From: a bacterium
GTDB lineage: Bacteria; Patescibacteriota; Dojkabacteria; JAOAGR01; JBAXGO01
Assembly (NCBI GenBank): GCA_037139335.1
Contig: JBAXGO010000001.1
Location: 4,503 to 68,502, forward strand
Length of the DNA stretch: 64,000 bases
Reading direction: 5' to 3'
A model generated the notes under the pieces. That model saw only the letters and a program-made list of their open reading frames with translations, was not told the origin of the DNA and made no database searches. The translations under genes and the position numbers were made by a program. Numbering within the stretch: position 1 is the first letter of the stretch; each line of letters starts with the position of its first letter. This document shows positions 3,419 to 33,201 of this stretch, piece by piece.

Positions 3419-4104
3419 AAATAAAATCAATAAAATATATTTCCATTGTATCGTTAGGTTTGCTCGGGGCTTCTAGTATTTCAAATGCAGAAACGACTAC
3501 TTGCAAAGATAGTTTTGCTCCGAAGTTTATATGTGAAAAATTCGCAGATATTACTACAAATTTCACATTTGGTTCAGTGCTTGATATGTTTTTTTCTATA
3601 GCTATTGCGGCACTTGTTGTTTTTATCTTATTTCAAATTGTGAAGGCAATCTTCAAATGGGTCTCTAAATCTGGTGATGAAAAAGAACGATCAGGGGCAA
3701 TTAAATCAATCTCAAATGCAGTTGCCGCAGGTATTGCTTTATTAGTTCTATTATTCGTAGTCCCATTATTTACTGATTTATTAAATATTGGTGGTAAACC
3801 AAATCCAGCGTATGTCTGTTATTCGGCTACAAGTTCTACTATGACACAGGCTAATATAGATCAGGAGACAGGTGCCTTGAATTCTGGTGTTAGTGCTTCT
3901 GAATTATCTGGAGGCATCGCATATGAAGGCAAAGCAAAAGGCGGAACTAAGAATAATAAAACAGCAGATTTTATAACTTTAACTGCGGATAATAAAGACA
4001 CAGTGGATTTTTTGAGCACAAAAATGTATTGCAAGGACAAAGATACTGGTGATGAGTATAAAGATGGATATGTTGTTTTGAAGAGAGTTGGGATCAAAAA
4101 GTAG
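3415..4104 (+). CDS. Pilin-like two-TM protein with a C-terminal extension, paralog C1
   Basis: Signal peptide and a Cys pair (TTCKD..FICEKF). The TM-loop-TM core carries FKWVSKSGDEKERSGAIKSISNAVAAG, followed by a ~100-aa C-terminal domain with 2 Cys. Confidence 0.5.
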   Translation: MKIKSIKYISIVSLGLLGASSISNAETTTCKDSFAPKFICEKFADITTNFTFGSVLDMFFSIAIAALVVFILFQIVKAIFKWVSKSGDEKERSGAIKSISNAVAAGIALLVLLFVVPLFTDLLNIGGKPNPAYVCYSATSSTMTQANIDQETGALNSGVSASELSGGIAYEGKAKGGTKNNKTADFITLTADNKDTVDFLSTKMYCKDKDTGDEYKDGYVVLKRVGIKK

Positions 4105-7739: not shown

Positions 7740-8159
7740 ATGAACAAAAATCATAAGGATTATACACAATTTATCAAATCTTCAAAAGGGTTGAAATCAA
7801 TTCTTATGTTTATAGTCTTCCTAATTTTGTTTAGTGGACTAGCTGTATTTCTAGTTGTTCAATATAATCAAACAGTATCAAAAAGCAATCAACTTCAAAT
7901 ATTAGAAAATGAACTAAAAGCTGAAAAACAGAGAAATGACGAGCTAAAATTACAGAAAGAAGACGTTAAATCTGATACATATATTGAAAAAGAAGCAAGA
8001 AATAAACTAGGATATTCATATCCAAATGAAAATTTATATATACTAAAAAAAATTGTCGATAGTTCTGTTTCACCAATTGAAAGTAATCCTGTATTATCAT
8101 TAGCTCAGGAAAATAAATCTCCAATTCAGAAATGGATGGATCTAATATTTGGACAATAG
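7740..8159 (+). CDS. ftsB: Septum formation initiator (FtsB/DivIC family)
   Basis: N-terminal TM, a coiled coil and the conserved YIEKEARNKLGYSYPNE motif. Confidence 0.7.
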   Translation: MNKNHKDYTQFIKSSKGLKSILMFIVFLILFSGLAVFLVVQYNQTVSKSNQLQILENELKAEKQRNDELKLQKEDVKSDTYIEKEARNKLGYSYPNENLYILKKIVDSSVSPIESNPVLSLAQENKSPIQKWMDLIFGQ

Positions 8160-8195
8160 AGCATAATTTGGTATAATCCCGAGTGCATGTAAATA

Positions 8196-8270
8196 CGCGG
8201 GGTAGAGCAGTGGCAGCTCGTCAGGCTCATAACCTGAAGGTCGTTGGTTCGAATCCAACCCCCGCAACCA
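8196..8270 (+). tRNA. Initiator tRNA-fMet (CAU)
   Basis: Cloverleaf with anticodon loop ctCATaa. The 5' CGCGGGG and 3' CCCCGCAACCA give a C1-A72 mismatch. The sequence is near-identical in pattern to bacterial initiator tRNA, and CCA is encoded. Confidence 0.85.
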
Positions 8271-8413
8271 TTATTCCTCAGAATCAATTTTCAATAAAAT
8301 TACTTATTCAATTCGTTTATTAATATTGGAACTGCCAATTATAAAAATATTCAGTATCTAATCTTTTATAACTTAAAAAATTCTCGATAAATTGTAGATA
8401 GACCATTATTTTT

Positions 8414-8423
8414 ATGTTAAAAT
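8414..8423 (+). promoter_or_regulatory. Extended -10 element (TGtTAAAAT) upstream of the elongator tRNA-Met
   Basis: TGnTAAAAT lies about 10 nt before the tRNA 5' end. Confidence 0.45.
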
Positions 8424-8432
8424 ACCCCTGCT

Positions 8433-8505
8433 GGCGACGTAGCTCAGGGGTTAGAGCATTGGACTCATAAGCCAAGGGTCGGTGGTTCAAATCCACCCGT
8501 CGTCA
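8433..8505 (+). tRNA. Elongator tRNA-Met (CAU)
   Basis: GGCGACGTAGCTCAG...ACTCATAA...GGTTCAAATCC...CGTCGTCA closely resembles elongator tRNA-Met. CCA is not encoded. Confidence 0.8.
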
Positions 8506-8598
8506 CTTTAGAAAACTTTAACCTAGCTGTCTTCGTACTTTATAAGCTAATATTGTAGAATTCTTGATGGCTCTTTTTACTTTAACATTGAAATTATT

Positions 8599-10527
8599 AT
8601 GGCGAAAAAACTCGATATAAAAAACGTCTTGAATAAGGATGCAAAAAAAAACAGTAATTCTGTAGGTAATAATCCCACAAAACCAATAAAGAGATCCAAA
8701 TCTGGTCTTCCTCTTAATCTTAAAAATATGAGGAATCCCAAAAAATGGTATAAGAATCCTACTTTTTGGATTTTGATAGCTATTGGCTTTTCAATAATTA
8801 TTTTCAAAACAGCTGTGGTTGAACCTCCTACAAAAACTGTAGATTATGGAGCATTTATTGCTGCTGTTAAAGATAAAAAATATACTAAAGTAACTGTTTT
8901 TGATTACAGTGCTGTCGGTACAAAAGAAGATCAAAAATCTACTGATACCGTTGGTATTCCAAATAAATCATCTTTCTCACAAAGTTTAAAAGACGCAGGT
9001 ATACCTGTTACTGAATCTGGAATTACATATGATCAGCCTGCTGCTGTAGATATTTTCCCTTTACTTGTGAATGTTGGTTTAACAATTGGTGCAATCTTAC
9101 TTTTAATTTATTTCTTATCAAAGCAGGGAGGGGCAGGTGGTGGTTCTTCTGGTATATTTGGTATGGGCGAAAGTAAGGCTCGAATGATTTATGGAAAAAA
9201 ACAAGATATTAATTTCGATTCTGTTGCTGGTATAGATGAATCTAAGGATGAATTAAAAGAAGTTGTAGATTTTCTCAAGAATCCACAAAAGTACACGCGT
9301 ATGGGCGCTAGAATCCCAAAGGGGGTGCTTCTAGTAGGGCCTCCAGGAACAGGTAAGACATTATTAGCCAGAGCTGTTTCTGGTGAAGCAGGTGTTCCTT
9401 TCTTTTTCACATCAGGTGCTGAATTTGAAGAATTATTAGTTGGTGCAGGAGCCGCACGTGTTAGAGATCTTTTTGCTAAGGCCAAAAAAGCATCTCCATC
9501 AATTATTTTTATTGATGAAATTGATGCTATGGCTCGAAAAAGAGGCTCTGTAATACAATCTACAGCAACTGAACAAACCTTAAATCAGATACTTGTTGAA
9601 ATGGATGGATTTGATAATAACACTGGAATTCTTGTTTTAGCTGCTACAAATAGAGCTGATGTATTAGATCCAGCTATATTAAGACCAGGTAGATTTGATA
9701 GAAGAGTAACTTTAGATTTGCCTGACAAAGATGCTAGAAGACAGATACTTGATGTTCATGTGAAAAATAAACCATTATCAAAAGAAATTGATTTGGACAT
9801 TATTGCCAGAAGAACTGGAGGATTTTCAGGTGCTGATATAGAAAATATGCTCAATGAGTCCGCTATTATTACAGCCAAAGAAGGCCGATCTGAAATTACA
9901 AATAAGGATATAGAAGAAGCTGTCGCCAAAATAATGGTTGGTCCTGCCAAAAAAACAATGGCTACAGATAAAGATCGAAAAATTATTGCTTATCATGAAG
10001 CTGGTCATGCTATTGTTGGATATATGACAGGAGCTGATAGAGATGTACATAGAATTACTATTATTGCCAGAGGAAGTGCCGGTGGATATACAGAATACAT
10101 CCCTCATGATGATGATAAATTGATGTCAAAAGAGAAAATGACTTCTATGATTACTAGTGTTCTTGCTGGAAATGCAACAGAAAAATTAATTTTCAATGAC
10201 ACTACGACTGGAGCTTCAGATGATTTTGAAAAGGCAACATCTATTGCAAGACGAATGATTACTAAGTATGGAATGGGTGATATTGGTCCAATGGTTTTAT
10301 CGGATGGTGATGATACATATTCTATGACATATGGAATGAGAAAGGAGTTCTCAGAAAAAATTGCTGAAGAAGTCGACAGAAATGTTCAGAGACTTCTTAA
10401 TGAATGTTATGATAATGCTACTGAACTTCTCAAAAGATATAAGGTTAAACTTGAAAGAGTTGTGCAGGTTTTGTTTGAAAAAGAAACTATTGAAGGAGAA
10501 GAATTCAAGGCTATTATGGCTGAATAA
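8599..10527 (+). CDS. ftsH: ATP-dependent zinc metalloprotease FtsH
   Basis: TM segments, AAA+ Walker A (GPPGTGKT), the SRH region and HEAGHAIVG zinc motif. Confidence 0.95.
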   Translation: MAKKLDIKNVLNKDAKKNSNSVGNNPTKPIKRSKSGLPLNLKNMRNPKKWYKNPTFWILIAIGFSIIIFKTAVVEPPTKTVDYGAFIAAVKDKKYTKVTVFDYSAVGTKEDQKSTDTVGIPNKSSFSQSLKDAGIPVTESGITYDQPAAVDIFPLLVNVGLTIGAILLLIYFLSKQGGAGGGSSGIFGMGESKARMIYGKKQDINFDSVAGIDESKDELKEVVDFLKNPQKYTRMGARIPKGVLLVGPPGTGKTLLARAVSGEAGVPFFFTSGAEFEELLVGAGAARVRDLFAKAKKASPSIIFIDEIDAMARKRGSVIQSTATEQTLNQILVEMDGFDNNTGILVLAATNRADVLDPAILRPGRFDRRVTLDLPDKDARRQILDVHVKNKPLSKEIDLDIIARRTGGFSGADIENMLNESAIITAKEGRSEITNKDIEEAVAKIMVGPAKKTMATDKDRKIIAYHEAGHAIVGYMTGADRDVHRITIIARGSAGGYTEYIPHDDDKLMSKEKMTSMITSVLAGNATEKLIFNDTTTGASDDFEKATSIARRMITKYGMGDIGPMVLSDGDDTYSMTYGMRKEFSEKIAEEVDRNVQRLLNECYDNATELLKRYKVKLERVVQVLFEKETIEGEEFKAIMAE

Positions 10528-14888: not shown

Positions 14889-16001
14889 ATGGAAAAAACA
14901 TTTTTAAAACACAAAATAGTTGTTGGTATGTCTGGAGGAGTCGATAGCTCTGTGGCGGCAGTTCTTCTGAAAGAGGAGGGTTATGATGTTATTGGTGTTC
15001 ACATGAAATATTGGTCCGAAAAAGACGAATTCGAGCTTTGTGATACTGGTATTGTCAATAATGATCCATCGAAGGCAAATGCATGTTGTTCGATTGATTC
15101 GCTTGAGGATGCTCGTCGTGTATGCGCGAAATTGGAAATCCCATTGTATGTTGTGGATTTGAAGGGTGAATTCAAAAAGAAAATTGTAGATACTTATATT
15201 GAAGATTTGAAAATTGGTTTGACGCCTAATGCGTGTGTTATTTGTAATAGAGATGTTAAGTTCGGGCTTCTGATGGATTATGCTGAGTCTATTGGGGCGG
15301 AATATGTTGCCACTGGTCATTATGCTCAAATTTATAACGATGAAAAAATTGATCGGTATGTTTTGAAAAAGGCTGTAGATGAAAACAAAGACCAGTCCTA
15401 TTTTTTATCGCTGTTATCACAAAAACAACTTTCGAAGATTAAATTGCCTTTAGGTACATTAACAAAAGATAAAGTTAGGGAAATTGCATCGCAGTATGGT
15501 TTGGTAAATTCGAAAAGAAGAGATAGTCAGGATTTATGCTTTATTGCTAATGATTATAAGACTTTCGTGCAAAAATATGCACCTAGTAAATCTGGAGATA
15601 TTATTTTGAAAGAAAGTGGTAAAAAAATTGGAACTCATGATGGGTTATCTCTCTATACAATTGGACAGAGGAAGGGCCTTTCTACGATTATAAATAAACC
15701 ATTATATGTGAGCTTTAAAGATTATGGTAATAATGTATTAGTGGTTGATTATAATGCAGTTAATGACAATACAAAGGTTATTTTAAAAGATTTTAACTGG
15801 ATAAAAATTCCGAATAAGAACACAAAATTAAATTTTGTTGGACGTTATCAAGGAATCGGTCGAGTAGTTGATTCGATAACTCATGATGGTTATGATGTTG
15901 TGGTGGGTTTCAACGACTCTGGTGTCAAATTTTCAGCTGGGCAGATCGGAGCGTTGTATGAAGGAGATATTTTAATCGGGGCTGGAAAAATAATAGACTG
16001 A
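14889..16001 (+). CDS. mnmA: tRNA-specific 2-thiouridylase MnmA
   Basis: PP-loop motif VVGMSGGVDSSVAA and conserved catalytic Cys residues. Confidence 0.9.
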   Translation: MEKTFLKHKIVVGMSGGVDSSVAAVLLKEEGYDVIGVHMKYWSEKDEFELCDTGIVNNDPSKANACCSIDSLEDARRVCAKLEIPLYVVDLKGEFKKKIVDTYIEDLKIGLTPNACVICNRDVKFGLLMDYAESIGAEYVATGHYAQIYNDEKIDRYVLKKAVDENKDQSYFLSLLSQKQLSKIKLPLGTLTKDKVREIASQYGLVNSKRRDSQDLCFIANDYKTFVQKYAPSKSGDIILKESGKKIGTHDGLSLYTIGQRKGLSTIINKPLYVSFKDYGNNVLVVDYNAVNDNTKVILKDFNWIKIPNKNTKLNFVGRYQGIGRVVDSITHDGYDVVVGFNDSGVKFSAGQIGALYEGDILIGAGKIID

Positions 16002-16003
16002 AA

Positions 16004-16690
16004 ATGTTTGGATTTTTTGGGCGAGGTGAAAAACTGAAAGATGAAGCTCGTACAAAAGTAGCTCCAGAGCTATTAATGTCTGTTTTTGATTCATTTATGA
16101 TTAAGTATGGTGAGGATCCGAATTCTTTTCCAAAGAGTACTTTTGCGCGACTGGATATAGAAATAAAAAATAGTATACGCACTGCTTTTGCCTCGTCTTA
16201 CACTTCTTTTTCTCAAGCTAGTGTCTTTTTGAAACATATGCATTGTGGTTCTGATGGCTTATATCCGTTTGGCTTTAATATTGATCGGACTGGGTTTCCT
16301 TTTCAAAAATTAACTTCCAATCAAGTTGTCATGATCATGGCGAATGTAGATCCGCCGTACAATACTATAGACGGGAAAACGGAATCGAATTCCATTATTG
16401 GCTTTTTTGGCGTTAAAGGAAAAGAACTTTTTTATCTAAGTAGTGCTGGAGGGGGTAGATTTAGTAAGGAATTTGCTCACTCTAGATCGGGCTATGATTA
16501 TATGATTAAGTCAAGTGGTGAAAAAAATATATTTTGGTGGTTGAAGGATGATGATGGTGGTGAAGTTGATGAAACAAATAGTCGTGTATTGAGTAGTGTG
16601 CGTTTATATGTCTTTGAAGTAGGGGGCGATGGTGCTCGCAGTGGCGTTGAAAAACATGCAAGGTTTTCGATGCAATCCTCTCGACTTTAG
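16004..16690 (+). CDS. Hypothetical protein, translationally coupled to mnmA
   Basis: Its ATG lies 2 nt after the mnmA TGA. It has a 228-aa ORF with no recognisable motif, and the block looks locally GC-richer. Confidence 0.5.
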   Translation: MFGFFGRGEKLKDEARTKVAPELLMSVFDSFMIKYGEDPNSFPKSTFARLDIEIKNSIRTAFASSYTSFSQASVFLKHMHCGSDGLYPFGFNIDRTGFPFQKLTSNQVVMIMANVDPPYNTIDGKTESNSIIGFFGVKGKELFYLSSAGGGRFSKEFAHSRSGYDYMIKSSGEKNIFWWLKDDDGGEVDETNSRVLSSVRLYVFEVGGDGARSGVEKHARFSMQSSRL

Positions 16691-16860
16691 GATTTTTTTA
16701 ATAAAATTTATATTACTTTTGTGCTAAAAAACCCATCAAATTTGATTAAAAAAGGCTATAGAATTTTATAAAAACTGTTATTATTTTATTACGAAAGGAT
16801 AAAATAAATATTAATTTTTTTTAATGCTGATTTGTTCATTATTTATGCGGTATTAGGGTG

Positions 16861-16889
16861 TTGACAATAGTATTTCAAACTGATATTAT
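16861..16889 (+). promoter_or_regulatory. Consensus sigma70 promoter (TTGACA-17-TATTAT) for the 16S rRNA transcript
   Basis: ttgaca, a 17-nt spacer and tattat lie about 140 nt upstream of the 16S 5' end. Confidence 0.6.
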
Positions 16890-17028
16890 CACGATGCTTT
16901 ATCAAAACTAAAGCGTTTTTCAATAAGGTTTTCTGATTGAAATCCCAAATGATCATTAACAATCTACAAGTGGTAAGAGTGCAATTTGAAACATAATTGC
17001 AAAAATATTTTTTCGTCAATTTATACTA

Positions 17029-18603
<1,575 letters not shown>

Positions 18604-18880
18604 TTAAAGGAGCTTTGAATCAGATCACACTGATTCATCAAAAATTTATAAAATACATTGTAATTCGATTGAAAAAATACTCTTACCGCTTGTAGGCAGT
18701 TAATGATCTTTTTTCTTTTTCAAAGTTAAAAAGTTCATAAGTTAAATAGGTTAGTATGTTATTGTTACCCTGAGCTTGTCAAACCAACACCATGACAACT
18801 ATTTTTGTTAAATTTTCTTCACTAGTTTTTTCTTCCTAAACGCATTACCATTTACTCTTAACTTTTAATTCTTAACTGAT

Positions 18881-19222
18881 ATGCAGGTAATACTAAAAAG
18901 TGACTCCGTTGAGTACCATAATGCATCTTCATGTACAGCGATAGAATATCCATCAAATGAAAAAGATATTAATATTGCGGGAATTATTATAAACGGCCGT
19001 TATCCCGAAACTGGTCTTGCTTATAACAAGGTTTGTAAGCTCATGGCTTATGTAGTAAAAGGTAGTGGAAAACTTGTCGTAGAAAGCCTAGAGGTTGTCT
19101 TAAATATAGGTGATGTCGTTACTATTAATCCAATGGAAAAGTACTACTGGGAAGGCTCTATGGAGCTAATAATGCCAAGTGTACCAGCATGGACACCAGA
19201 TCAATATATACATGAGGAATAA
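18881..19222 (+). CDS. Small cupin-fold protein (no metal-binding His motif)
   Basis: 113 aa with a beta-barrel-like pattern (GDVVTINP...). It lies between 16S and tRNA-Ile. Confidence 0.4.
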   Translation: MQVILKSDSVEYHNASSCTAIEYPSNEKDINIAGIIINGRYPETGLAYNKVCKLMAYVVKGSGKLVVESLEVVLNIGDVVTINPMEKYYWEGSMELIMPSVPAWTPDQYIHEE

Positions 19223-19410
19223 ATCTTGAATATTAGATCGATAAAAGATAAATTCCGTGAAATTTAAATGATTTTTATGGCTGAATTATTTACGCGTGAG
19301 TTATACGAAAAGATTAGTGATAATTCACATTATGTTTATGTAACTATACAAAAACGAGAATCCGAAGATGAGCAACCGAAAATCATGTTTTAGAGTTTAA
19401 TTTTGGAGCT

Positions 19411-19734
19411 ATGCTTGGAGATAGATCTAAAATAATAATTAAGTCGTTATCAGAGTTGTTAAAACAAGGATATGCTGAAATTAGTAGAGGAGATCTTTTA
19501 TTCGAAAGACCTAAACAGGGTGAGGAAATAATTCAAAATGGTGATTCTTTTTTGAGAACACATTTCATTACGGTCACTGGAAATGAAAGCGGTTCAGTAG
19601 TTGAAAATGGGCGTAGAGCAACTTGTATGGCAATTCAAAATATTGTTGGAGATAATGTTGGTGTTGTAGGAAAAATTGGTTTTGAATCTCGTGTTGTTTA
19701 CGATACACAAAAAATACCTATAATTAAGCCTTAG
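19411..19734 (+). CDS. Hypothetical protein
   Basis: 107-aa ORF between 16S and tRNA-Ile with no motif recognised. Confidence 0.35.
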   Translation: MLGDRSKIIIKSLSELLKQGYAEISRGDLLFERPKQGEEIIQNGDSFLRTHFITVTGNESGSVVENGRRATCMAIQNIVGDNVGVVGKIGFESRVVYDTQKIPIIKP

Positions 19735-19900
19735 AATATTGTTTAATAGTTATTGATAATTATCAGCTTTACTGGTAACATTCTTTTGCTGTTTTTCAAA
19801 ACGGTTCTTTCTTTTTTGTAATATTTAGGAACTGTATTTAGGAAGACATAGATTGAGTTTATAGTATTCGTTATTGGCGGTTGCAGAAAGATATGGTTAC

Positions 19901-19977
19901 GGGCGATTAGCTCAGCTGGTTAGAGCGCAGTCCTGATAAGACTGAGGTCCTTGGTTCGAGTCCAAGACCGCCCACCA
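19901..19977 (+). tRNA. tRNA-Ile (GAU)
   Basis: Cloverleaf with anticodon loop ctGATaa and a TTCGAGT T-loop. CCA is encoded. Confidence 0.9.
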
Positions 19978-20055
19978 TTTGTCAGTTAACAGTTTAAAAT
20001 TAAAAATTAAGAGTTTTGGCACAGTATTCAGAAAAACAACTTTTAATTGATTTTG

Positions 20056-20131
20056 GGGCCCTTAGCTTAGCTGGTAGAGCGCCTCGTTTGCAACGAGGAG
20101 GTCAGGAGTTCGAATCTCCTAGGGTCCACCA
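20056..20131 (+). tRNA. tRNA-Ala (UGC)
   Basis: Anticodon loop ttTGCaa and the G3:U70 identity pair. CCA is encoded. Confidence 0.9.
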
Positions 20132-20136
20132 TAAAG

Positions 20137-20160
20137 AAATCCCGTGAGGGATTTTTTGCT
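20137..20160 (+). terminator. Rho-independent terminator immediately after tRNA-Ala
   Basis: aaatccc-gtga-gggattt followed by tttgcttttt. Confidence 0.7.
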
Positions 20161-20211
20161 TTTTATAAAAACTTCACAGTAGAAAAATGTCTTTAGTGTT
20201 AATTTATTGTT

Positions 20212-20487
20212 ATGAAAACAAAAATAGTTGATCTAATAACCAAGTCCTTCCAGCCAGAATCAATATTTAATTACGGTTCTCGGGCCAGAACGGATTGTCT
20301 TGATAAAAGTGATTACGATATTGGTGTTATCTTTTCGGATGCAAACTTTGTTAGCAGAATGGCTTTGAAGAAAGCTATTAATTTAGATGGCGTTAGTGCT
20401 TATCCTTTTCACTTAAATGATTTCAAGAATGGAATGATTGATACTCCATTTCAAAAAAGTATCTTTAGTAATATTTCAAAAACATAA
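20212..20487 (+). CDS. Minimal nucleotidyltransferase (MNT/Pol-beta superfamily), possibly truncated by a frameshift
   Basis: The GS-x9-DxD motif YGSRARTDCLDKSDYDIGV is present. The ORF ends just after an A6 run. Confidence 0.55.
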   Translation: MKTKIVDLITKSFQPESIFNYGSRARTDCLDKSDYDIGVIFSDANFVSRMALKKAINLDGVSAYPFHLNDFKNGMIDTPFQKSIFSNISKT

Positions 20488-20701
20488 GTTTGCTATTACA
20501 TACGACGAAATTATTAAAGAGTCGGAATTATTAAAATTGCGGAAATACACTGAACTAGTTGCTAATGCATATAAAGTTAGGTTGGGAGAAATGAAAGTCT
20601 ATGAATCTGATCTTTATAAAAATATCTCTTATATTAATAAATTCATAGAACCAAAATTTATGGATTTATATCAATGTTCTGGGGATATTCAATTAATATA
20701 A
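20438..20701 (+). CDS. Hypothetical ORF in the +1 frame overlapping the MNT 3' end by 50 nt. It may be the frameshifted continuation or a HEPN-like partner.
   Basis: It has no ATG start (the track uses TTG). It overlaps the MNT gene and no RxxxxH motif was seen. Confidence 0.3.
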   Translation: MILHFKKVSLVIFQKHKFAITYDEIIKESELLKLRKYTELVANAYKVRLGEMKVYESDLYKNISYINKFIEPKFMDLYQCSGDIQLI

Positions 20702-21002
20702 AAATTTCTGCGTTGCTCAAATATTGGTTTGTCGAGTATTTTAGTAGCTAAATGTATAAAAAATTTCCATTATTAGTTCTCATAGCTAAACTATGATACG
20801 TAATATTATCTAGTATTAAGCCTTTCTGTCGATATCTATCATTCCAGAATTGCTTTTCATTTTATAAAAATATTATTGGTGGTATTAATTGCACAACTTT
20901 ATAAATCGTTTGTTATAAAAGATATCGTGGAAAAATGTGTGAACGTATGTGGGCAATAGGACTTGCGTGTTATAATCTATCATGCATTTAATATCCTCAT
21001 AA

Positions 21003-21356
21003 ATGTCAAACCCTCCACAAGCATCTGAAATATATGTACCTCGTTATTATATTGAAATCGCCAATAATAAAGGTGGATCGGCTCCTTCTTTTTTAGTTAA
21101 CCGTAATTTAACGCTAGCTATTTTAGAATTAGGTCGTAGTGAAAATATTTATGAATTAATTAATAATAGTATTCCAGTCCCAGAGCTTCTGAAAAGAGTA
21201 GATAGGTTCTTTGCTTTTGGCGATAAATTTGGATGGAATAAAACAAGAAAACTTCAAGTTATAAATGACGCAGGGCGAAGACCTTTCCTTCCTCAAGGTA
21301 TTGAACATAAAAAAGAAAAAATATTGAAGTATATGTTGCTAAATCGGGACTATTAG
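21003..21356 (+). CDS. Hypothetical cytoplasmic protein
   Basis: 117-aa ORF preceded by an extended -10-like tgtTATAAT at about 20966-20974. Confidence 0.45.
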   Translation: MSNPPQASEIYVPRYYIEIANNKGGSAPSFLVNRNLTLAILELGRSENIYELINNSIPVPELLKRVDRFFAFGDKFGWNKTRKLQVINDAGRRPFLPQGIEHKKEKILKYMLLNRDY

Positions 21357-21382
21357 GTCGTCAAACAATTAAGCTTGCACTG

Positions 21383-21757
21383 GTGGATTTTGTATCAGAA
21401 CCTACACAATCGGAAAGTAATGCCGGTTATAGAGAAGTTATTCGGTTACAATTTGGTAATCCATTTGGTGGTGATTCCGCTTTGATTGTTATTGGAAAAA
21501 AGATTCCTGGACAAAATAAATTATTATATTCTTATACTATTCGTGATACTAGATTTGATCCGTGGGTGCAAGTTTACATTTCTAATATAAATAATCCTGA
21601 TAATAGATTTGTAACGGAAAACGATGAGGTAGTCCGAGATATATCTTCATATGGATTTGAATATCAGACTGGATTCTTACAATATATGGGGATTCCAACT
21701 TTTTCAAGGCATGTTGGTGATTATTCTCCTGTATCGATTAAGAATAATAGAAATTAA
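21383..21757 (+). CDS. Hypothetical cytoplasmic protein
   Basis: 124-aa ORF 26 nt downstream of the previous one, probably the same operon. Confidence 0.45.
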   Translation: MDFVSEPTQSESNAGYREVIRLQFGNPFGGDSALIVIGKKIPGQNKLLYSYTIRDTRFDPWVQVYISNINNPDNRFVTENDEVVRDISSYGFEYQTGFLQYMGIPTFSRHVGDYSPVSIKNNRN

Positions 21758-21764
21758 TTATTAT

Positions 21765-22967
21765 TTAATCTACCCACACTGGAGTGTCAATTTCTGCCCA
21801 ATTATAAAGCCATTTTACATTTGTTAATGGTGTCCTGATGCAACCTAAACTTCCTCTGGTGTGATAGTCCATTCCTCCGTAATTAGTTGGAGTAGGGGTG
21901 TCGTGAATTCCATAATCTTGGTAAAAAGGCATCCAATAATTTACTAATACATCATAATTATGACCACTTGTGTCGACTCCTCTCAGATGTTCTTGTTCTT
22001 TTTTTTGAAATATCGCGAATTTACCTGTTACTGTTGGGGATAAATCTTTTCCAGTAGTTACTACTGTTGTAAAAACTGGAACTCCATACTCATATGCGTA
22101 CATCTTTTGATCAGCAATACTGATGTATATGAATTTTGGTGCGTTGTTTTTTGCGGTTGGAGCCTGAACGTTCTTTGCTTGATTATCTTTCTTTTGTTGC
22201 TCAATTTGTTTTTCTAATTCTTGTGCGGAAGATAATTGTGCAGATAAGTTAGGCGTATACACTGTTTTTACATCACTATATGCTATTGTTTTACCTTTCC
22301 ATTTGGTGAGTAAGTCAGAAACTTTCGATTTGTAATCTGTTAATGATGTTGCGATATTTTCTTTGGTTGGTACTGTTGAAAAATATTTTGCAAGTCTATT
22401 GGCTTCTGTTTCGTTAGTAAGTAATTCGTTGTATAGATTAATTTCTTTTGAAAAAGATAATTCAACTGCTAATTTTACGTCTAATTCGTAAACAGTGAAC
22501 GTATTAATATTAGGAATTGGTATTGAAGGGTTATTTAAAGCTTGTTTTAGTGAAGTATATTGGCTTTTTATCTCTTCATAACTTGGCAATTCTGTAGCTT
22601 CTGGCAAGCTCAAATTTTGTTCGATTTTATTTAATGTTTGTAATGTATTTTCTTTATAGTAATTTTTGTTATTAATTTCGATATCTTTCTTGTAATTTGA
22701 AAGTTCAGAATTAATGGACTTTAATTCGAAGATATATTTAATATTATTAATTTTATTTTTTGCTTCGCTCATAGCGACTTTTATTTCAGAATATTTATTA
22801 GAGTCAACATCCTTAATAAGGCTGATTGCAGATTCTATAGAATTAATAGAACTTGTTGCCTTATTGTTTTCGCTAATAAAGAACCATATGAAAGTTCCTA
22901 ATATTGTGACTACTATTAATACAATAGTAAGAAATGTGAATAATAGGATTGTTTTTATGTTTTTCAT
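21765..22967 (-). CDS. L,D-transpeptidase (YkuD domain) with an N-terminal TM and a coiled-coil region
   Basis: C-terminal YkuD catalytic motif (YGIHDTP...GSLGCIRTP). N-terminal membrane anchor and a long coiled coil. Confidence 0.75.
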   Translation of the reverse strand: MKNIKTILLFTFLTIVLIVVTILGTFIWFFISENNKATSSINSIESAISLIKDVDSNKYSEIKVAMSEAKNKINNIKYIFELKSINSELSNYKKDIEINNKNYYKENTLQTLNKIEQNLSLPEATELPSYEEIKSQYTSLKQALNNPSIPIPNINTFTVYELDVKLAVELSFSKEINLYNELLTNETEANRLAKYFSTVPTKENIATSLTDYKSKVSDLLTKWKGKTIAYSDVKTVYTPNLSAQLSSAQELEKQIEQQKKDNQAKNVQAPTAKNNAPKFIYISIADQKMYAYEYGVPVFTTVVTTGKDLSPTVTGKFAIFQKKEQEHLRGVDTSGHNYDVLVNYWMPFYQDYGIHDTPTPTNYGGMDYHTRGSLGCIRTPLTNVKWLYNWAEIDTPVWVD

Positions 22968-23561
22968 GCTTTTTGTGACTTCTCAAATAATGCCATGTTT
23001 TAATACATTCGTAAAGAGTAAAGATACTTACATATGTATAAAACTATAATATGATAATTATATTTCTATTTATTCAAATTATTCGTAAATTTTATCATAA
23101 TTTTGTTAAAAAATTGTAATATTTTGTATGTTTTTGTAATTATATGATTTTCAATCTTTATCTATCTGCATTAATGCCGTGATTATCTATGTTTTTTATG
23201 TATTAAATGTGTTGCATTTTGTAATAACATATGGTATATTTTCAGCCGATATGACGCTAATGTCCTCTATTCATAATACAAGTCAATTACCACGCGCGTA
23301 GTTAGACCTCTGTAGTGATATTATTCTTTATAGAACTGATAAATCTAAGTGTTGCGGTTTATGAATTATTATGATAATATCACCGTGCTTTGCTAATGTA
23401 AGTTATAAGTTGAAGATTAAGAAGTAAGTCTTCAGCTTGAAAGCTTGTAAAAGCAATCAAATGTTCCTTTAAAACTGAATAGGTTATTTTTGCAAAATTC
23501 AATTGAGTCTAATTATAAAACAAGTCTCTTGTTTTTGGTGGATTCATTGTTCGTAAATTTG

Positions 23562-26680
<3,119 letters not shown>

Positions 26681-26815
26681 ACAAATTTACGAATTTTTGC
26701 AAAAATTAGCCTGTTCAGTTTCAAAGGAATATATACTGAATTATTAGTGACAAATTAATAATTTAGTGATATACTCCCAGAGTGTTCATACGACAGTTAG
26801 TAATGCTGACTGTTG

Positions 26816-26931
26816 TATGGTCACTGTAGCGAAGCGGCACTACCTCTTCCCATACCGAACAGAGTCGTAAAACGTTTTTGCGCCGAAAATACTCGGACCT
26901 TAGGTCCCGGGAAAATAGGTCGTGGCCAGCC
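26816..26931 (+). rRNA. rrf: 5S ribosomal RNA
   Basis: CCCATACCGAACAGAG...GTAAAACG...GCGCCGA...TACTCGG resembles loops B and C of 5S. The terminal helix is tggtcac/gtggcca. Confidence 0.65.
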
Positions 26932-26937
26932 AAAAGA

Positions 26938-26968
26938 GCATCTATGCTAAAACATAGGTGCTTTTTTG
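26938..26968 (+). terminator. Rho-independent terminator after 5S
   Basis: agcatctatg / cataggtgct stem followed by ttttt. Confidence 0.6.
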
Positions 26969-27222
26969 CTTTACAAATAACATCTTTTCCCTCTACTCAA
27001 AGTCGGTATTATCTGCTATAATACCGTGCATTTTTATATGCGCATTTAAAGGAGGATTTAATCGTTGACTAGGTTTAGTTAACAAATTAAAGAAAAATGC
27101 AGTCCTGGAATCATCATGTAAATGATAATTGTAGGGATGTCTTTTTTTATTTGCAAAAAGTTTATTGTATTAGGATTTTGTACAAAAACTTATTATTTAT
27201 AAAATCCGAAAGAAAAAGGTTA

Positions 27223-28371
27223 ATGATGGATGATTTTAAAAAATTAATTCAGGACAATCTTGAAACTGTTGCCAAATTACCAAAACTTAAAAAAGGTGAT
27301 TTGATCCAAGGAAAGGTTGTGGATGTAAAAAAAGGAACTGTTTTGGTAGACATTGGTGCCAAGTCAGAAGGTGTTATAAGTGGTAAAGAACTTGCTACAA
27401 AGGAAAAATTAGAAATCAATGTTGGTGATGGTATTATGGTTTACGTTGTAAACCCAGAAGATGAGGTTGGTAACATTGTTCTTTCTCTTAGAAGAACAGA
27501 TGCCGTACGAAGATGGTTAGCTCTAGAACTTGCTCAAAAAAGTGATGAAGTTGTAGTTGCTACTGTTACAGAAGCAAATACAGGTGGTGTTTTGGTCATG
27601 GTTGGTGGTTTATCCGGATTTATCCCTACCTCACAACTTTCACAAGAAGTTATGGCGCAGACCGGTATTTCCAATATGTCCAAAGATGATATTTCTGCAA
27701 TTCCTATGAAGCTAAATGAACTTGTAGGTAAAGAAATTAAAGCTAAGATCATGGAATTGGATAGAAAGAAAAATAGAATCATTCTTTCTGAAAAACTTGT
27801 TGTAAATGCTCAATCTGTCAAAGAAAGAGAAGCTACATTGAAGAGAATCAAGGTAGGAGATGCATTAACTGGTCAGGTTACAGGTATAACTCCATTCGGG
27901 TTATTTGTAAACGCAGAAGGATTGGAAGGATTAGTCCATCTTTCAGAAATGTCATGGGACAAAGTCGACAATCCAGCAGATCTTTATGAAGTTGGTAAGA
28001 GTATTAAAGTTCAGCTCATTGGTCTTTCTGACAATGGCAAAAGAGTTGCATACTCAATCAAAAGACTTACACCAGATCCATGGGCAACAGTTGTATCAAA
28101 ATACAAAGTTGGTCAATTGGTTAGTGGTAAGATTACTAAAATTGCAGTATTCGGTGCATTCGTAAGAATTGATGATGGTCTAAATGGACTTATTCATATA
28201 TCTGAACTTTCAGATAAAATGGTCACAAATCCTGAGGATGTTGTAAAAGTTGGTGATGCTGTAGAAGTTATGATAATTTCTATCTCTCCCAACGAAAGAC
28301 ATCTTGGTCTAAGTCTCAAAAGAGTGAATGGTAAAGAAGTTGAGTCTTTGGATGAAGAAATGATTAAGTAA
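27223..28371 (+). CDS. rpsA: 30S ribosomal protein S1
   Basis: Four S1 domains. The start is taken at ATGATGGAT (MMDDFKK) after gaaaaagg. The 42-codon N-terminal extension in the ORF track looks spurious. Confidence 0.85.
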   Translation: MMDDFKKLIQDNLETVAKLPKLKKGDLIQGKVVDVKKGTVLVDIGAKSEGVISGKELATKEKLEINVGDGIMVYVVNPEDEVGNIVLSLRRTDAVRRWLALELAQKSDEVVVATVTEANTGGVLVMVGGLSGFIPTSQLSQEVMAQTGISNMSKDDISAIPMKLNELVGKEIKAKIMELDRKKNRIILSEKLVVNAQSVKEREATLKRIKVGDALTGQVTGITPFGLFVNAEGLEGLVHLSEMSWDKVDNPADLYEVGKSIKVQLIGLSDNGKRVAYSIKRLTPDPWATVVSKYKVGQLVSGKITKIAVFGAFVRIDDGLNGLIHISELSDKMVTNPEDVVKVGDAVEVMIISISPNERHLGLSLKRVNGKEVESLDEEMIK

Positions 28372-31389: not shown

Positions 31390-33201
31390 ATGGCTCGTAC
31401 TAAATTACTTACTGTAAATACTTCTGAGGATACTGAAATTCAAGAAAAAAAATCATTATCGAAACCAGGAAAAAAACCAACCATAAAATCTATCAAAGAT
31501 GAAATAAAGGTTGAAAAAAAAGTTAAACCAGTAAAGGAATTAGTGAAAAAAGCTATCGTTGAAAAAGTTTTAATAGAAGAGAAAACTATTGCTAACCAAG
31601 ACATTAAGCCCGTGGAAATAAATAAAGAGGTTGTTCAAGAAAAAGTTTCTAGTAATCAAATCGAAGAAAAAAATACAACTGTTGAAAAAACAAGAAGTGG
31701 TTTTGAAGGCCAGGTTATTAAACATGTGTCAAACGAAATGAAAAGACCATTTAATAATGATAGAAATAGACCTATGAGAAACCATGAAAACGGAAATTCT
31801 AATCAGTTCGGCAAGAAACCGTTCGATAATAAATACCAACAAAAAGGAAACTCAAACGTTCAAAATAATAGATCAATGCCGCCACAGTTTAATAATGCTA
31901 GTAATAACGGCAGTAATGTTTCAAAAAGTGTTCCACAGTTTACACCTTATAAAATCACAGATCTTGAAGGTAAGACTGTTGCGGAGCTTCGAGAGATTGC
32001 ATCAAAAATGAATCTTGAGGGAGTTGGTGAAATGAATAAGCATGATTTAATTATTTTTATTCTTGCAGCTGCTACTCAAAATCAAGGAAATAACATACTT
32101 GTGGAAGGTATATTGGAAATTATGGCTGATGGAACTCATGGTGTATTGAGATCTATGAAACTTTTACCATCAGAAAATGATGTTTATGTGTCTCTTTCTC
32201 AAATAAGAAGATTTAATATGAGAATGGGCGATTTTGTTGTTGGTCTTGCTAGACTTCCAAAAGATAATGAAAGATATTTATCTCTTCTTCGAGTTGATTC
32301 TATTAATGCTACTAAAGCAGAAGAAGCTACTAATAGACCGTATTTCGAAAGAATGACTCCAATATTTCCTAACAAGATAATGAATCTTGAAACAGAACCA
32401 GAAACACTATCTACTAGACTTATTGATTTATTATCTCCAATTGGTTATGGCCAAAGAGGTATGGTTGTTGCTCCGCCAAAAGCAGGTAAAACATGGCTTT
32501 TAAAAGACATTGCTAAAGGCATAAGCCAGAATCATCCTAATGCTCATTTAATGGTTGTTCTAATTGCAGAAAGACCCGAAGAAGTTACAGATATGGCACG
32601 TTTCGTGAAAGGTGAAGTTTTCGCTGCAAATTTTGATGAATCAGCAGAAGTTCAAGTTAAAGTCGCTGAGTTATCTTTGGAGAGAGCAAAAAGAATGGTC
32701 GAGTCTGGACATGATGTTGTAATTCTTCTGGACAGTATTACACGTTTGGCAAGAGCATATAATGTTGTAATGCCTACATCTGGAAGAACATTGTCTGGTG
32801 GTATGGATCCAATTGCTTTGTATCCACCAAAGAGATTCTTTGGGGCTGCACGTAATTTTGAAAATGGTAAAAGTTTAACAATTATTGCGACAGCTTTGGT
32901 TGATACTGGAAGTAAAATGGATGATGTTGTCTTTGAAGAATTCAAAGGTACAGGTAATATGGAGCTTCATTTGGATAGAGCATTATCTGAGAGAAGAGTA
33001 TTTCCTGCTATTAATATTAAAGAATCTGGTACTAGAAACGAAGATCTATTATTAGGTAAGGAGAATCTTGCTAAGATATGGAGCATTCGAAGACTGATTG
33101 ATGAAATGAAGACCATTGATGCTGTTTCAGCAATTGCCGATAGACTCAAAAAAACTAAAACTAATCAATCTTTTCTTGATACAATTCATGAAATAATCTA
33201 A
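31390..33201 (+). CDS. rho: Transcription termination factor Rho with a long N-terminal insertion domain
   Basis: RNA-binding domain, Walker A (PPKAGKT) and the Q- and R-loops. It is preceded by a ~200-aa K/E- and N/Q-rich low-complexity region. Confidence 0.92.
   Translation: MARTKLLTVNTSEDTEIQEKKSLSKPGKKPTIKSIKDEIKVEKKVKPVKELVKKAIVEKVLIEEKTIANQDIKPVEINKEVVQEKVSSNQIEEKNTTVEKTRSGFEGQVIKHVSNEMKRPFNNDRNRPMRNHENGNSNQFGKKPFDNKYQQKGNSNVQNNRSMPPQFNNASNNGSNVSKSVPQFTPYKITDLEGKTVAELREIASKMNLEGVGEMNKHDLIIFILAAATQNQGNNILVEGILEIMADGTHGVLRSMKLLPSENDVYVSLSQIRRFNMRMGDFVVGLARLPKDNERYLSLLRVDSINATKAEEATNRPYFERMTPIFPNKIMNLETEPETLSTRLIDLLSPIGYGQRGMVVAPPKAGKTWLLKDIAKGISQNHPNAHLMVVLIAERPEEVTDMARFVKGEVFAANFDESAEVQVKVAELSLERAKRMVESGHDVVILLDSITRLARAYNVVMPTSGRTLSGGMDPIALYPPKRFFGAARNFENGKSLTIIATALVDTGSKMDDVVFEEFKGTGNMELHLDRALSERRVFPAINIKESGTRNEDLLLGKENLAKIWSIRRLIDEMKTIDAVSAIADRLKKTKTNQSFLDTIHEII

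Follow-up and report, generated by a model that had tools for sequence, protein, structure and literature searches.

A split ribosomal RNA locus with gene-bearing intervals on both sides of its tRNAs in a patescibacterial genome

The stretch of DNA considered here, 64,000 nucleotides of contig JBAXGO010000001.1 (hereafter the window), carries a ribosomal RNA (rRNA) locus in which the 16S and 23S genes are held apart by other genes; 3,430 bp of protein-coding and AT-rich DNA, here called the wedge, lie between tRNA-Ala and 23S. Very probably this is an orthodox "unlinked rRNA" locus of the candidate phyla radiation (CPR): a broken ancestral operon, now of at least two transcription units, with filler of fast turnover between them. 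The 23S–5S block most likely forms a transcription unit of its own, as judged from its signals. Neither in its composition nor in the searches described below does the wedge show a sign of being mobile cargo of recent arrival.

Layout of the locus in the window and in relatives

The RNA genes were placed with Rfam and ARAGORN:

17022-18603, + strand, 16S rRNA gene (Rfam RF00177, 1343.7 bits, full length)
19901-19977, + strand, tRNA-Ile (GAU) (ARAGORN and Rfam)
20056-20131, + strand, tRNA-Ala (UGC) (ARAGORN and Rfam)
23562-26684, + strand, 23S rRNA gene (Rfam RF02541, 2367.6 bits, full length)
26816-26931, + strand, 5S rRNA gene (Rfam RF00001, 70.7 bits)

The order is thus 16S-[1.3 kb, two genes]-Ile-Ala-[3.4 kb, four genes]-23S-5S, with 4,958 bp between 16S and 23S. 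A preliminary description of this DNA had reported a gene-bearing 3.4-kb stretch separating a 23S–5S unit from a 16S–tRNA unit. The stretch is present, as the RNA gene positions and the open reading frames (ORFs) show, and the tRNAs do lie 3′ of 16S on the same strand; however, 16S and the tRNAs are no tight unit, because 1,297 bp (18604-19900) with two called genes intervene. Given this second gene-bearing gap the RNA genes fall into three blocks rather than two. A sub-threshold Rfam scan of 18604-23561 returned no RNA family besides the two tRNAs. The GC content of the window overall is 33%; the source sequence is also held as ENA ERZ27300129 k141_247086 (142 kb), and the NCBI metagenome-assembled genome carries locus tags from WCJ19_00105 onward.

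The ribosomal protein S1 gene downstream of 5S has relatives at 82-88% identity, followed by a wider group at 53-57% in which the few named entries belong to Candidatus Dojkabacteria or Microgenomates. The 16S gene is 78% identical to that of L027, the contig whose S1 is listed at NCBI as Dojkabacteria HGW-1. By these sequence comparisons the host is a deep-branching CPR/Patescibacteria lineage whose nearest named relatives are Dojkabacteria. Because the S1-ClpC-...-Rho-LysM/M23 block downstream of 5S is conserved, the orthologous locus could be recovered in four lineages. In addition to the window these are:

L005 (23S 90.9% identical, S1 86%), 16S-530 bp-Ile-Ala-[ORFs of 442, 78 and 206 aa]-23S-5S
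L026 (23S 73%), Ile-Ala-23S-5S behind its own TTGTAA-17-TATAAT promoter
L027 (23S 71%), 16S-71 nt-Ile-9 nt-Ala-154 nt-23S-130 nt-5S, a textbook linked operon

The comparison with relatives that the preliminary description had proposed therefore yields a contiguous 16S-Ile-Ala-23S-5S arrangement at the orthologous locus of L027. Nor is one gene order conserved throughout the lineage, which would have spoken for an ancient stable split: at the junction between tRNA-Ala and 23S, L005 has other genes and L027 none. None of the three L005 ORFs has a Pfam match, and a tblastn search with the wedge proteins of the window gave no match in the recovered stretches of any relative. In L026 no 16S gene is found within 4 kb upstream of tRNA-Ile, and this arrangement is, on its sequence, a different way of breaking the same operon. 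Linked rRNA operons are, as a general rule, ancestral. With that rule and these few relatives setting the polarity, we infer that the split is derived, that its position between tRNA-Ala and 23S is shared with L005, and that the content of the junction has since turned over completely.

Two scans looked more widely for the locus. The first, of metagenomes with TTCCTTTAAAACTGAATAG, gave ten loci, of which one, the L005 contig, was genuine and the other nine were without rRNA; the second, of genome contigs with S1, returned two Anaerolineae loci only, at 40% identity and without rRNA.

Several further features of the region were recorded. The window 23S gene measures 3,123 nt against a model of 2,925 positions, and has ∼58 nt more than L005 at 24909-24980, probably a lineage-specific expansion segment of 23S. 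In the upstream part of L026 (1-4032), where 16S is missing, a gene encoding a giant cadherin-repeat protein (more than 1,750 aa) ends 84 nt short of tRNA-Ile. The S1 ORF of the window (27097-28371, 424 aa) is overlong at its 5′ end: close homologues are of 381-387 aa and align from residue 44, which makes the ATG at 27226 the probable start. Rho (31390-33201) is 603 aa long and conserved from residue 188, with a long N-terminal extension of variable length; the protein has 512-561 aa in close relatives and 421-423 aa in L026 and L027.

Transcription units and processing helices

The signals that bear on transcription and processing are as follows:

16861-16889, + strand, 16S promoter, TTGACA-17-TGaTATTAT followed by CACGATG
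16951-17025, + strand, 5′ strand of the 16S processing helix, pairing with about 18659-18707
20134-20165, + strand, intrinsic terminator closing the 16S/tRNA block, a 10-bp stem followed by UUUUUUGCUUUUU, 3 nt after tRNA-Ala
23352-23380, + strand, proposed 23S–5S promoter, TTGCGG-17-TGaTAATAT
23390-23456, + strand, leader hairpin between promoter and processing helix, conserved (cofolds of the window and L005, alignment)
23461-23568, + strand, 5′ strand of the 23S processing helix, with 54 intermolecular pairs to 26676-26732
26676-26732, + strand, 3′ strand of the 23S processing helix (cofold with 23461-23568)
26933-26972, + strand, intrinsic terminator closing the 23S–5S unit

A consensus scan of 16000-28000 ranks the 16S promoter as the best sigma-70-like site, with 11 of 12 positions matched and an extended -10. 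Its 16-nt -10/discriminator core, TGATAWWATCACSRTG, has exactly two matches in the 64-kb window, where 0.01 would be expected by chance: one upstream of 16S (16881-16896), the other upstream of 23S (23372-23387). The two promoter copies also have GTGTTG at the -35 in common. The same core recurs upstream of the L005 23S gene, at 3814-3829, and the site at 23352-23380 aligns with TTGTCA-17-TGaTAAAAT of L005, position and form being kept. L027 has a 16S promoter of the same type, TTGCGT-17-TGtTAAAAT-CACG (2296-2330). These observations suggest a clade-wide class of rRNA promoter that would have been duplicated or recruited upon the splitting of the operon. On these grounds the putative 23S–5S promoter is assigned to 23352-23380; transcripts would start near 23387 and carry ∼175 nt of leader ahead of mature 23S.

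Both rRNAs are flanked by long complementary sequences that are conserved in relatives, as expected of RNase III-type processing stems. The 16S flanks cofold at -80.7 kcal/mol, and the sequence of the 3′ strand is conserved in L005. The 23S helix is present in the window, L005, L026 and L027, with 46-54 intermolecular pairs. Between the window and L005 its middle part differs on both strands with pairing kept; the core of the 3′ strand, TTCAGTTTCAAAGGAA, is invariant across all close relatives. A boxA reading of GTTCCTTTAAAACTG was dropped in favour of a strand of this helix, its complement having been found 3′ of 23S; an additional antitermination role for the sequence is conceivable.

At the distal ends of the blocks the hairpin at 20134-20165 folds at -12 kcal/mol (z = -3.4, 1 of 200 shuffles as good), and that at 26933-26972, the stronger of the two, at -21.3 kcal/mol (z = -5.1, 0 of 200 shuffles as good), with its position conserved in L010. 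The terminator scan detected none from 16S to the tRNAs, and upstream of tRNA-Ile the promoter candidates are weak and non-conserved only.

Together these features sustain the earlier proposal that 23S–5S is transcribed independently: the terminator after tRNA-Ala, a convergent opposite-strand gene in the wedge, the conserved rRNA-type promoter and a helix formed from the 23S flanks only all point to a separate unit. A contiguous 16S-tRNAIle-tRNAAla-23S-5S operon upstream of S1-ClpC-Rho would, in this lineage, have been broken at two junctions, 16S|tRNA-Ile and tRNA-Ala|23S. The first unit would begin at 16861-16889 and stop at 20134-20165. It would make 16S, to be released by means of the helix that its flanks form, and transcription may continue across the two small genes to tRNA-Ile and tRNA-Ala. 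The second would begin at 23352-23380, from a promoter of the same rRNA type, make the leader of ∼175 nt, 23S and 5S, and stop at 26933-26972, with 23S excised via a helix of ∼54 bp (23461-23568 with 26676-26732). The 3.2 kb between the two units would be ordinary chromosomal filler of quick turnover.

The main alternative for transcription is that the whole 10-kb region is one operon: polymerases starting at the 16S promoter would pass the hairpin behind tRNA-Ala, cross the wedge and reach 23S–5S, with the wedge genes as passengers of the rRNA transcript. The lack of a detected terminator between 16S and the tRNAs is in keeping with this, as is the fact that rRNA transcription complexes of other bacteria resist terminators (Nus-factor antitermination). 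It is nonetheless improbable: a strong terminator stands at 20134-20165, a second, conserved rRNA-type promoter lies 175 nt upstream of 23S, and the path includes a 1.2-kb gene on the opposite strand, which is the criterion by which Lui et al. class CPR rRNA genes as unlinked. A different placement of the second start was implied by the preliminary description, which had named ttgcaa-18-tataaa at 23490-23519 as a plausible promoter. The string is where it was said to be, its hexamers and 18-nt spacer lying 42 nt upstream of mature 23S, but it is not credible as a promoter. It falls within 23461-23568, the 5′ strand of the 23S processing helix, so a transcript begun there could not form that helix: a start near 23526 would leave out 23461-23525, which is conserved in four lineages. 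Furthermore, L005 has a different sequence where the -35 falls, and the -10 belongs to an insertion specific to the window; with the invariant final T missing from its -10, the site did not pass the consensus scan. An independent 23S–5S unit starting there is very improbable, and the promoter preferred here is ∼110 nt further upstream.

Contents and origin of the intervals

Every ORF that had been listed for the wedge was found – a nucleotidyltransferase (NTase), an ORF overlapping it in the +1 frame, two uncharacterised ORFs and a minus-strand L,D-transpeptidase – and so was the AT-rich region of about 590 bp before 23S, which measures 594 bp (22968-23561) at 26.1% GC:

20212-20487, + strand, minimal MNT/Pol-beta-type NTase, 91 aa (Pfam PF18765)
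20438-20701, + strand, overlapping ORF (orf87), 87 aa, +1 frame over the 3′ end of the NTase (ORF list)
21003-21356, + strand, ORFan orf117, 117 aa (called gene, singleton cluster)
21383-21757, + strand, strict ORFan orf124, 124 aa (native codon use)
21765-22967, − strand, L,D-transpeptidase, 400 aa (Pfam YkuD, E = 3.8e-21, residues 278-399)
22968-23351, no strand assigned, AT-rich divergent intergenic region, the upstream (promoter) region of the transpeptidase on the minus strand, preceding the 23S promoter

The filler would accordingly comprise a solo NTase, two lineage-restricted ORFans and a transpeptidase transcribed toward the ORFans from an AT-rich divergent region that it shares with the 23S promoter. 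That region (22968-23351) has several promoter-like sites on the minus strand and is poorly conserved with L005. Each wedge protein is a singleton cluster at 90%, with the exception of orf124, which has one other member, also of 124 aa.

The NTase had been described as toxin-antitoxin-like. Type VII toxin-antitoxin systems of the HepT/MntA kind are MNT–HEPN pairs, HI0073/HI0074 being an example. The MNT half of such a pair is recognisable: the protein scores 31.9 bits with Pfam Polbeta PF18765 (cut-off 26.9), its catalytic motifs YGSRAR (GS) and DYD (DxD) are legible, giving the minimal GS...DxD signature, it matches PADLOC PDC-S09 at 6e-7, and it weakly resembles minimal MNT proteins (the putative NTase of PDB 2rff, E = 0.0035, and HI0073). 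Its similarity to MntA is also weak and, at 26.4 bits against a cut-off of 60 (NCBIfam NF047752), falls below the threshold. The sole adjacent ORF, orf87, has no Rx4-6H motif and no match to HEPN or any other family in Pfam, PADLOC, NCBIfam or PHROGs. Because the defining HEPN partner is absent, the reading as an MNT–HEPN module fails, and the protein is best described, from its sequence, as a putative solo minimal nucleotidyltransferase.

The overlapping ORF is itself probably not a gene. It is not among the genes called in ENA, the consecutive NCBI locus tags leave no space for one, and its codon score gives weak frame preference (0.195 against 0.169). A run of six A residues at 20451-20456, within the overlap, is a possible frameshift or assembly-error site. 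Fusing the NTase and orf87 at this run moves the Polbeta score from 31.9 to 32.7 bits, a gain of 0.8 bit only, and reveals no C-terminal domain; a single frameshifted gene is neither supported nor excluded by this result.

The two ORFans are unmatched in Pfam, NCBIfam, PHROGs and PADLOC, and orf117 also in viral contigs and phages. When 1.84 billion cluster representatives were searched with orf124 the sole match was orf124 itself. Their composition is that of the genome: orf117 has GC1/2/3 of 0.45/0.33/0.20 (genome 0.43/0.32/0.21), and orf124 has native codon use (z = +0.75) and a GC1/GC2/GC3 pattern near-identical to that of the genome. A single-sequence AlphaFold2 model of orf117 reached a predicted local distance difference test (pLDDT) score of 50. 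The transpeptidase is of recognisable build: an N-terminal transmembrane helix as membrane anchor, a long helical spacer and a C-terminal YkuD domain (PF03734, 76.6 bits, cut-off 23.4), with the active-site motif HTRGSLGCIR intact and the conserved His in YGIHDTP. Its closest full-length homologue, at 39% identity, has the same architecture and lies beside an S9-L13-L17-RpoA-S4 cluster, not beside rRNA.

The gap between 16S and tRNA-Ile holds two genes:

18881-19222, + strand, cupin-like ORF, 113 aa (NCBI name "cupin domain-containing protein"; weak Cupin_2 match, E = 0.005)
19411-19734, + strand, orf107, 107 aa, called gene with no assigned function

The cupin-like ORF is the sole outlier in codon score (z = -2.6) and is absent from the recovered stretches of L005 and L027. 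The codon use of orf107 is native (z = +1.4) with strong frame preference, and no family match was found for it in Pfam, PHROGs, PADLOC or NCBIfam. Given that the terminator scan found none from 16S to the tRNAs, both may be carried on the 16S/tRNA precursor. The corresponding gap measures 530 bp in L005, with no credible ORF, and 71 bp in L027.

The preliminary description had likened the wedge to acquired cargo and had proposed comparing its GC content and codon usage with the rest of the genome. That comparison, made against 122 control windows of equal size for composition and 50 reference genes for codon scores, gave no deviation outside the genome's own distribution. The GC content is 30.5% (controls 31.6 ± 1.6%); the dinucleotide distance delta* is 0.0645, a value equalled or exceeded by 31% of controls; the tetranucleotide correlation (r = 0.963) lies at the 48th percentile of controls; and the synonymous-codon scores of the four wedge genes are within ±1.3 standard deviations of the reference genes. 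No integrase, transposase or recombinase domain was found in any wedge ORF with Pfam, PHROGs, PADLOC or NCBIfam. Flanking direct or inverted repeats were not found around the wedge, nor was a second copy of the tRNA-Ala 3′ end or an attachment (att) repeat, and the wedge proteins tested had no relatives in PHROGs, IMG/VR, GenBank phages or PLSDB plasmids. Of the marks of a genomic island, variable content among relatives was found; deviant composition, a mobility gene and flanking repeats were not.

A recent island or other mobile cargo, inserted at the 3′ end of tRNA-Ala and bringing a toxin-antitoxin-like NTase and orphan genes, is therefore an improbable origin of the wedge, even though several features invite the idea. 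The 3′ side of a tRNA gene is a classical site of island integration, and the wedge starts directly after one; at this junction L005 has wholly different genes and L027 is without a wedge; its genes are ORFans; and MNT-type NTases, as the PDC-S09 match recalls, are common in defence and toxin-antitoxin islands. Against this stand GC, dinucleotide, tetranucleotide and codon signatures that are indistinguishable from the rest of the contig, the failure to find mobility genes, repeats or phage and plasmid relatives in the searches above, and a nearest transpeptidase homologue that shares a lineage-specific architecture and sits in a chromosomal ribosomal-protein context. Least probable of all is a chimeric join made during assembly. 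Regions of rRNA are often points of breakage or chimerism in short-read assemblies, and the contigs of several relatives end inside 23S. The wedge proteins, however, are on record from NCBI, JGI/IMG, ENA and Logan, on contigs of 142 kb and 117 kb; architecture of the L005 type recurs in contigs from several independent samples; L005 and L006, the two that cover the region upstream of 23S, are identical there; and the sequences on either side of 23S, like those on either side of 16S, pair as they should in a genuine locus.

Some points weigh against the broken-operon account favoured here. Only one close relative with the 16S–23S interval was recovered, the metagenome scan having yielded no others, and both outgroups stand very far off, at 71-73% identity in 23S, so that polarity rests on few taxa. 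The -35 of the 23352-23380 promoter, TTGCGG, fits the consensus at 3 of 6 positions only, and the site was missed by the consensus scan; that promoter, its start site and the supposed lack of read-through are deductions from sequence, and expression of the ORFans is likewise a presumption. The homologue searches for the NTase, orf117, orf107 and the cupin-like ORF were non-exhaustive.

The junctions of the locus also differ in what fills them. At 16S|tRNA-Ile, tRNA-Ala|23S and 5S|S1 there are small ORFs without Pfam matches, in sets that vary from one lineage to another, and the window ORFs have native codon use. It is possible, if on balance rather doubtful, that fragmented rRNA spacers are a nursery or hotspot for lineage-specific ORFans, with breaks healed by duplication of the rRNA promoter. 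Such a pattern would be in keeping with genes that arise de novo again and again, or are replaced very rapidly, in AT-rich DNA beside the strongest promoters of the cell. The spacer between 5S and S1 amounts to ∼0.3 kb in the window and to 2.6 kb in L005 (7401-10000), which has about four small ORFs there, one having a weak, truncated Trans_reg_C match; in L026 it is 2 kb (8000-10000) with five Pfam-less ORFs; and in L027 it holds two recognisable genes.

Comparison with known systems

Brewer et al. (10.1101/705046; ISME J 2020) call rRNA genes unlinked once the distance from 16S to 23S exceeds 1500 bp, and they single out Patescibacteria for having this layout as a rule; the gap here is 4,958 bp (18603 to 23562). 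Among 34 circularised CPR genomes 27 were unlinked (Lui et al. 2021, PMC8172020). The category D of those authors, "unlinked by distance", comprises genes on the same strand, more than 2000 bp apart, with one or more opposite-strand genes between them such that one promoter cannot serve both; the minus-strand transpeptidase (21765-22967) between tRNA-Ala and 23S places the window in it. The likeness extends to same-strand 16S and 23S, intervening genes including one on the opposite strand, 23S and 5S kept together and a CPR host with a small genome. Nothing essential differs, and the locus is a further instance of the known CPR layout. The tRNAs here are near neither rRNA (1.3 kb from 16S, 3.4 kb from 23S), and the orthologous locus has been traced through linked, half-split and doubly split forms, whereas the surveys did not proceed locus by locus.

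What is mildly new is the second copy of an rRNA-type promoter, the second gene-bearing gap and the full replacement of filler ORFans at 91% 23S identity. The practical weight is small: one more CPR genome, like others reported from the group, in which amplification or binning of 16S and 23S as one operon is not feasible. As a worked example – the same locus linked (L027), with 16S detached (L026) and doubly split (window and L005) – it is usable for studying the fragmentation of rRNA operons and the origin of ORFans, and the corrected promoter call is relevant to the design of 5′-end mapping.

Two bacteria offer parallels. In Borrelia burgdorferi the 16S-tRNA-Ala, tRNA-Ile and 23S-5S genes give three separate transcripts by reverse transcription PCR (Bugrysheva et al. 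2011, PMC3037291), an experimentally characterised analogue of the organization proposed here from sequence signals; it differs in having tandem 23S-5S copies and a separate transcript for tRNA-Ile, whereas the window has a single 23S-5S and adjacent tRNAs. Helicobacter pylori makes separate 16S and 23S-5S precursors, each processed via its own flanking stem (PMC6582327), as is predicted for the window. In H. pylori, however, the loci are far apart in the genome; here the putative units lie 5 kb apart at what would be the ancestral locus.

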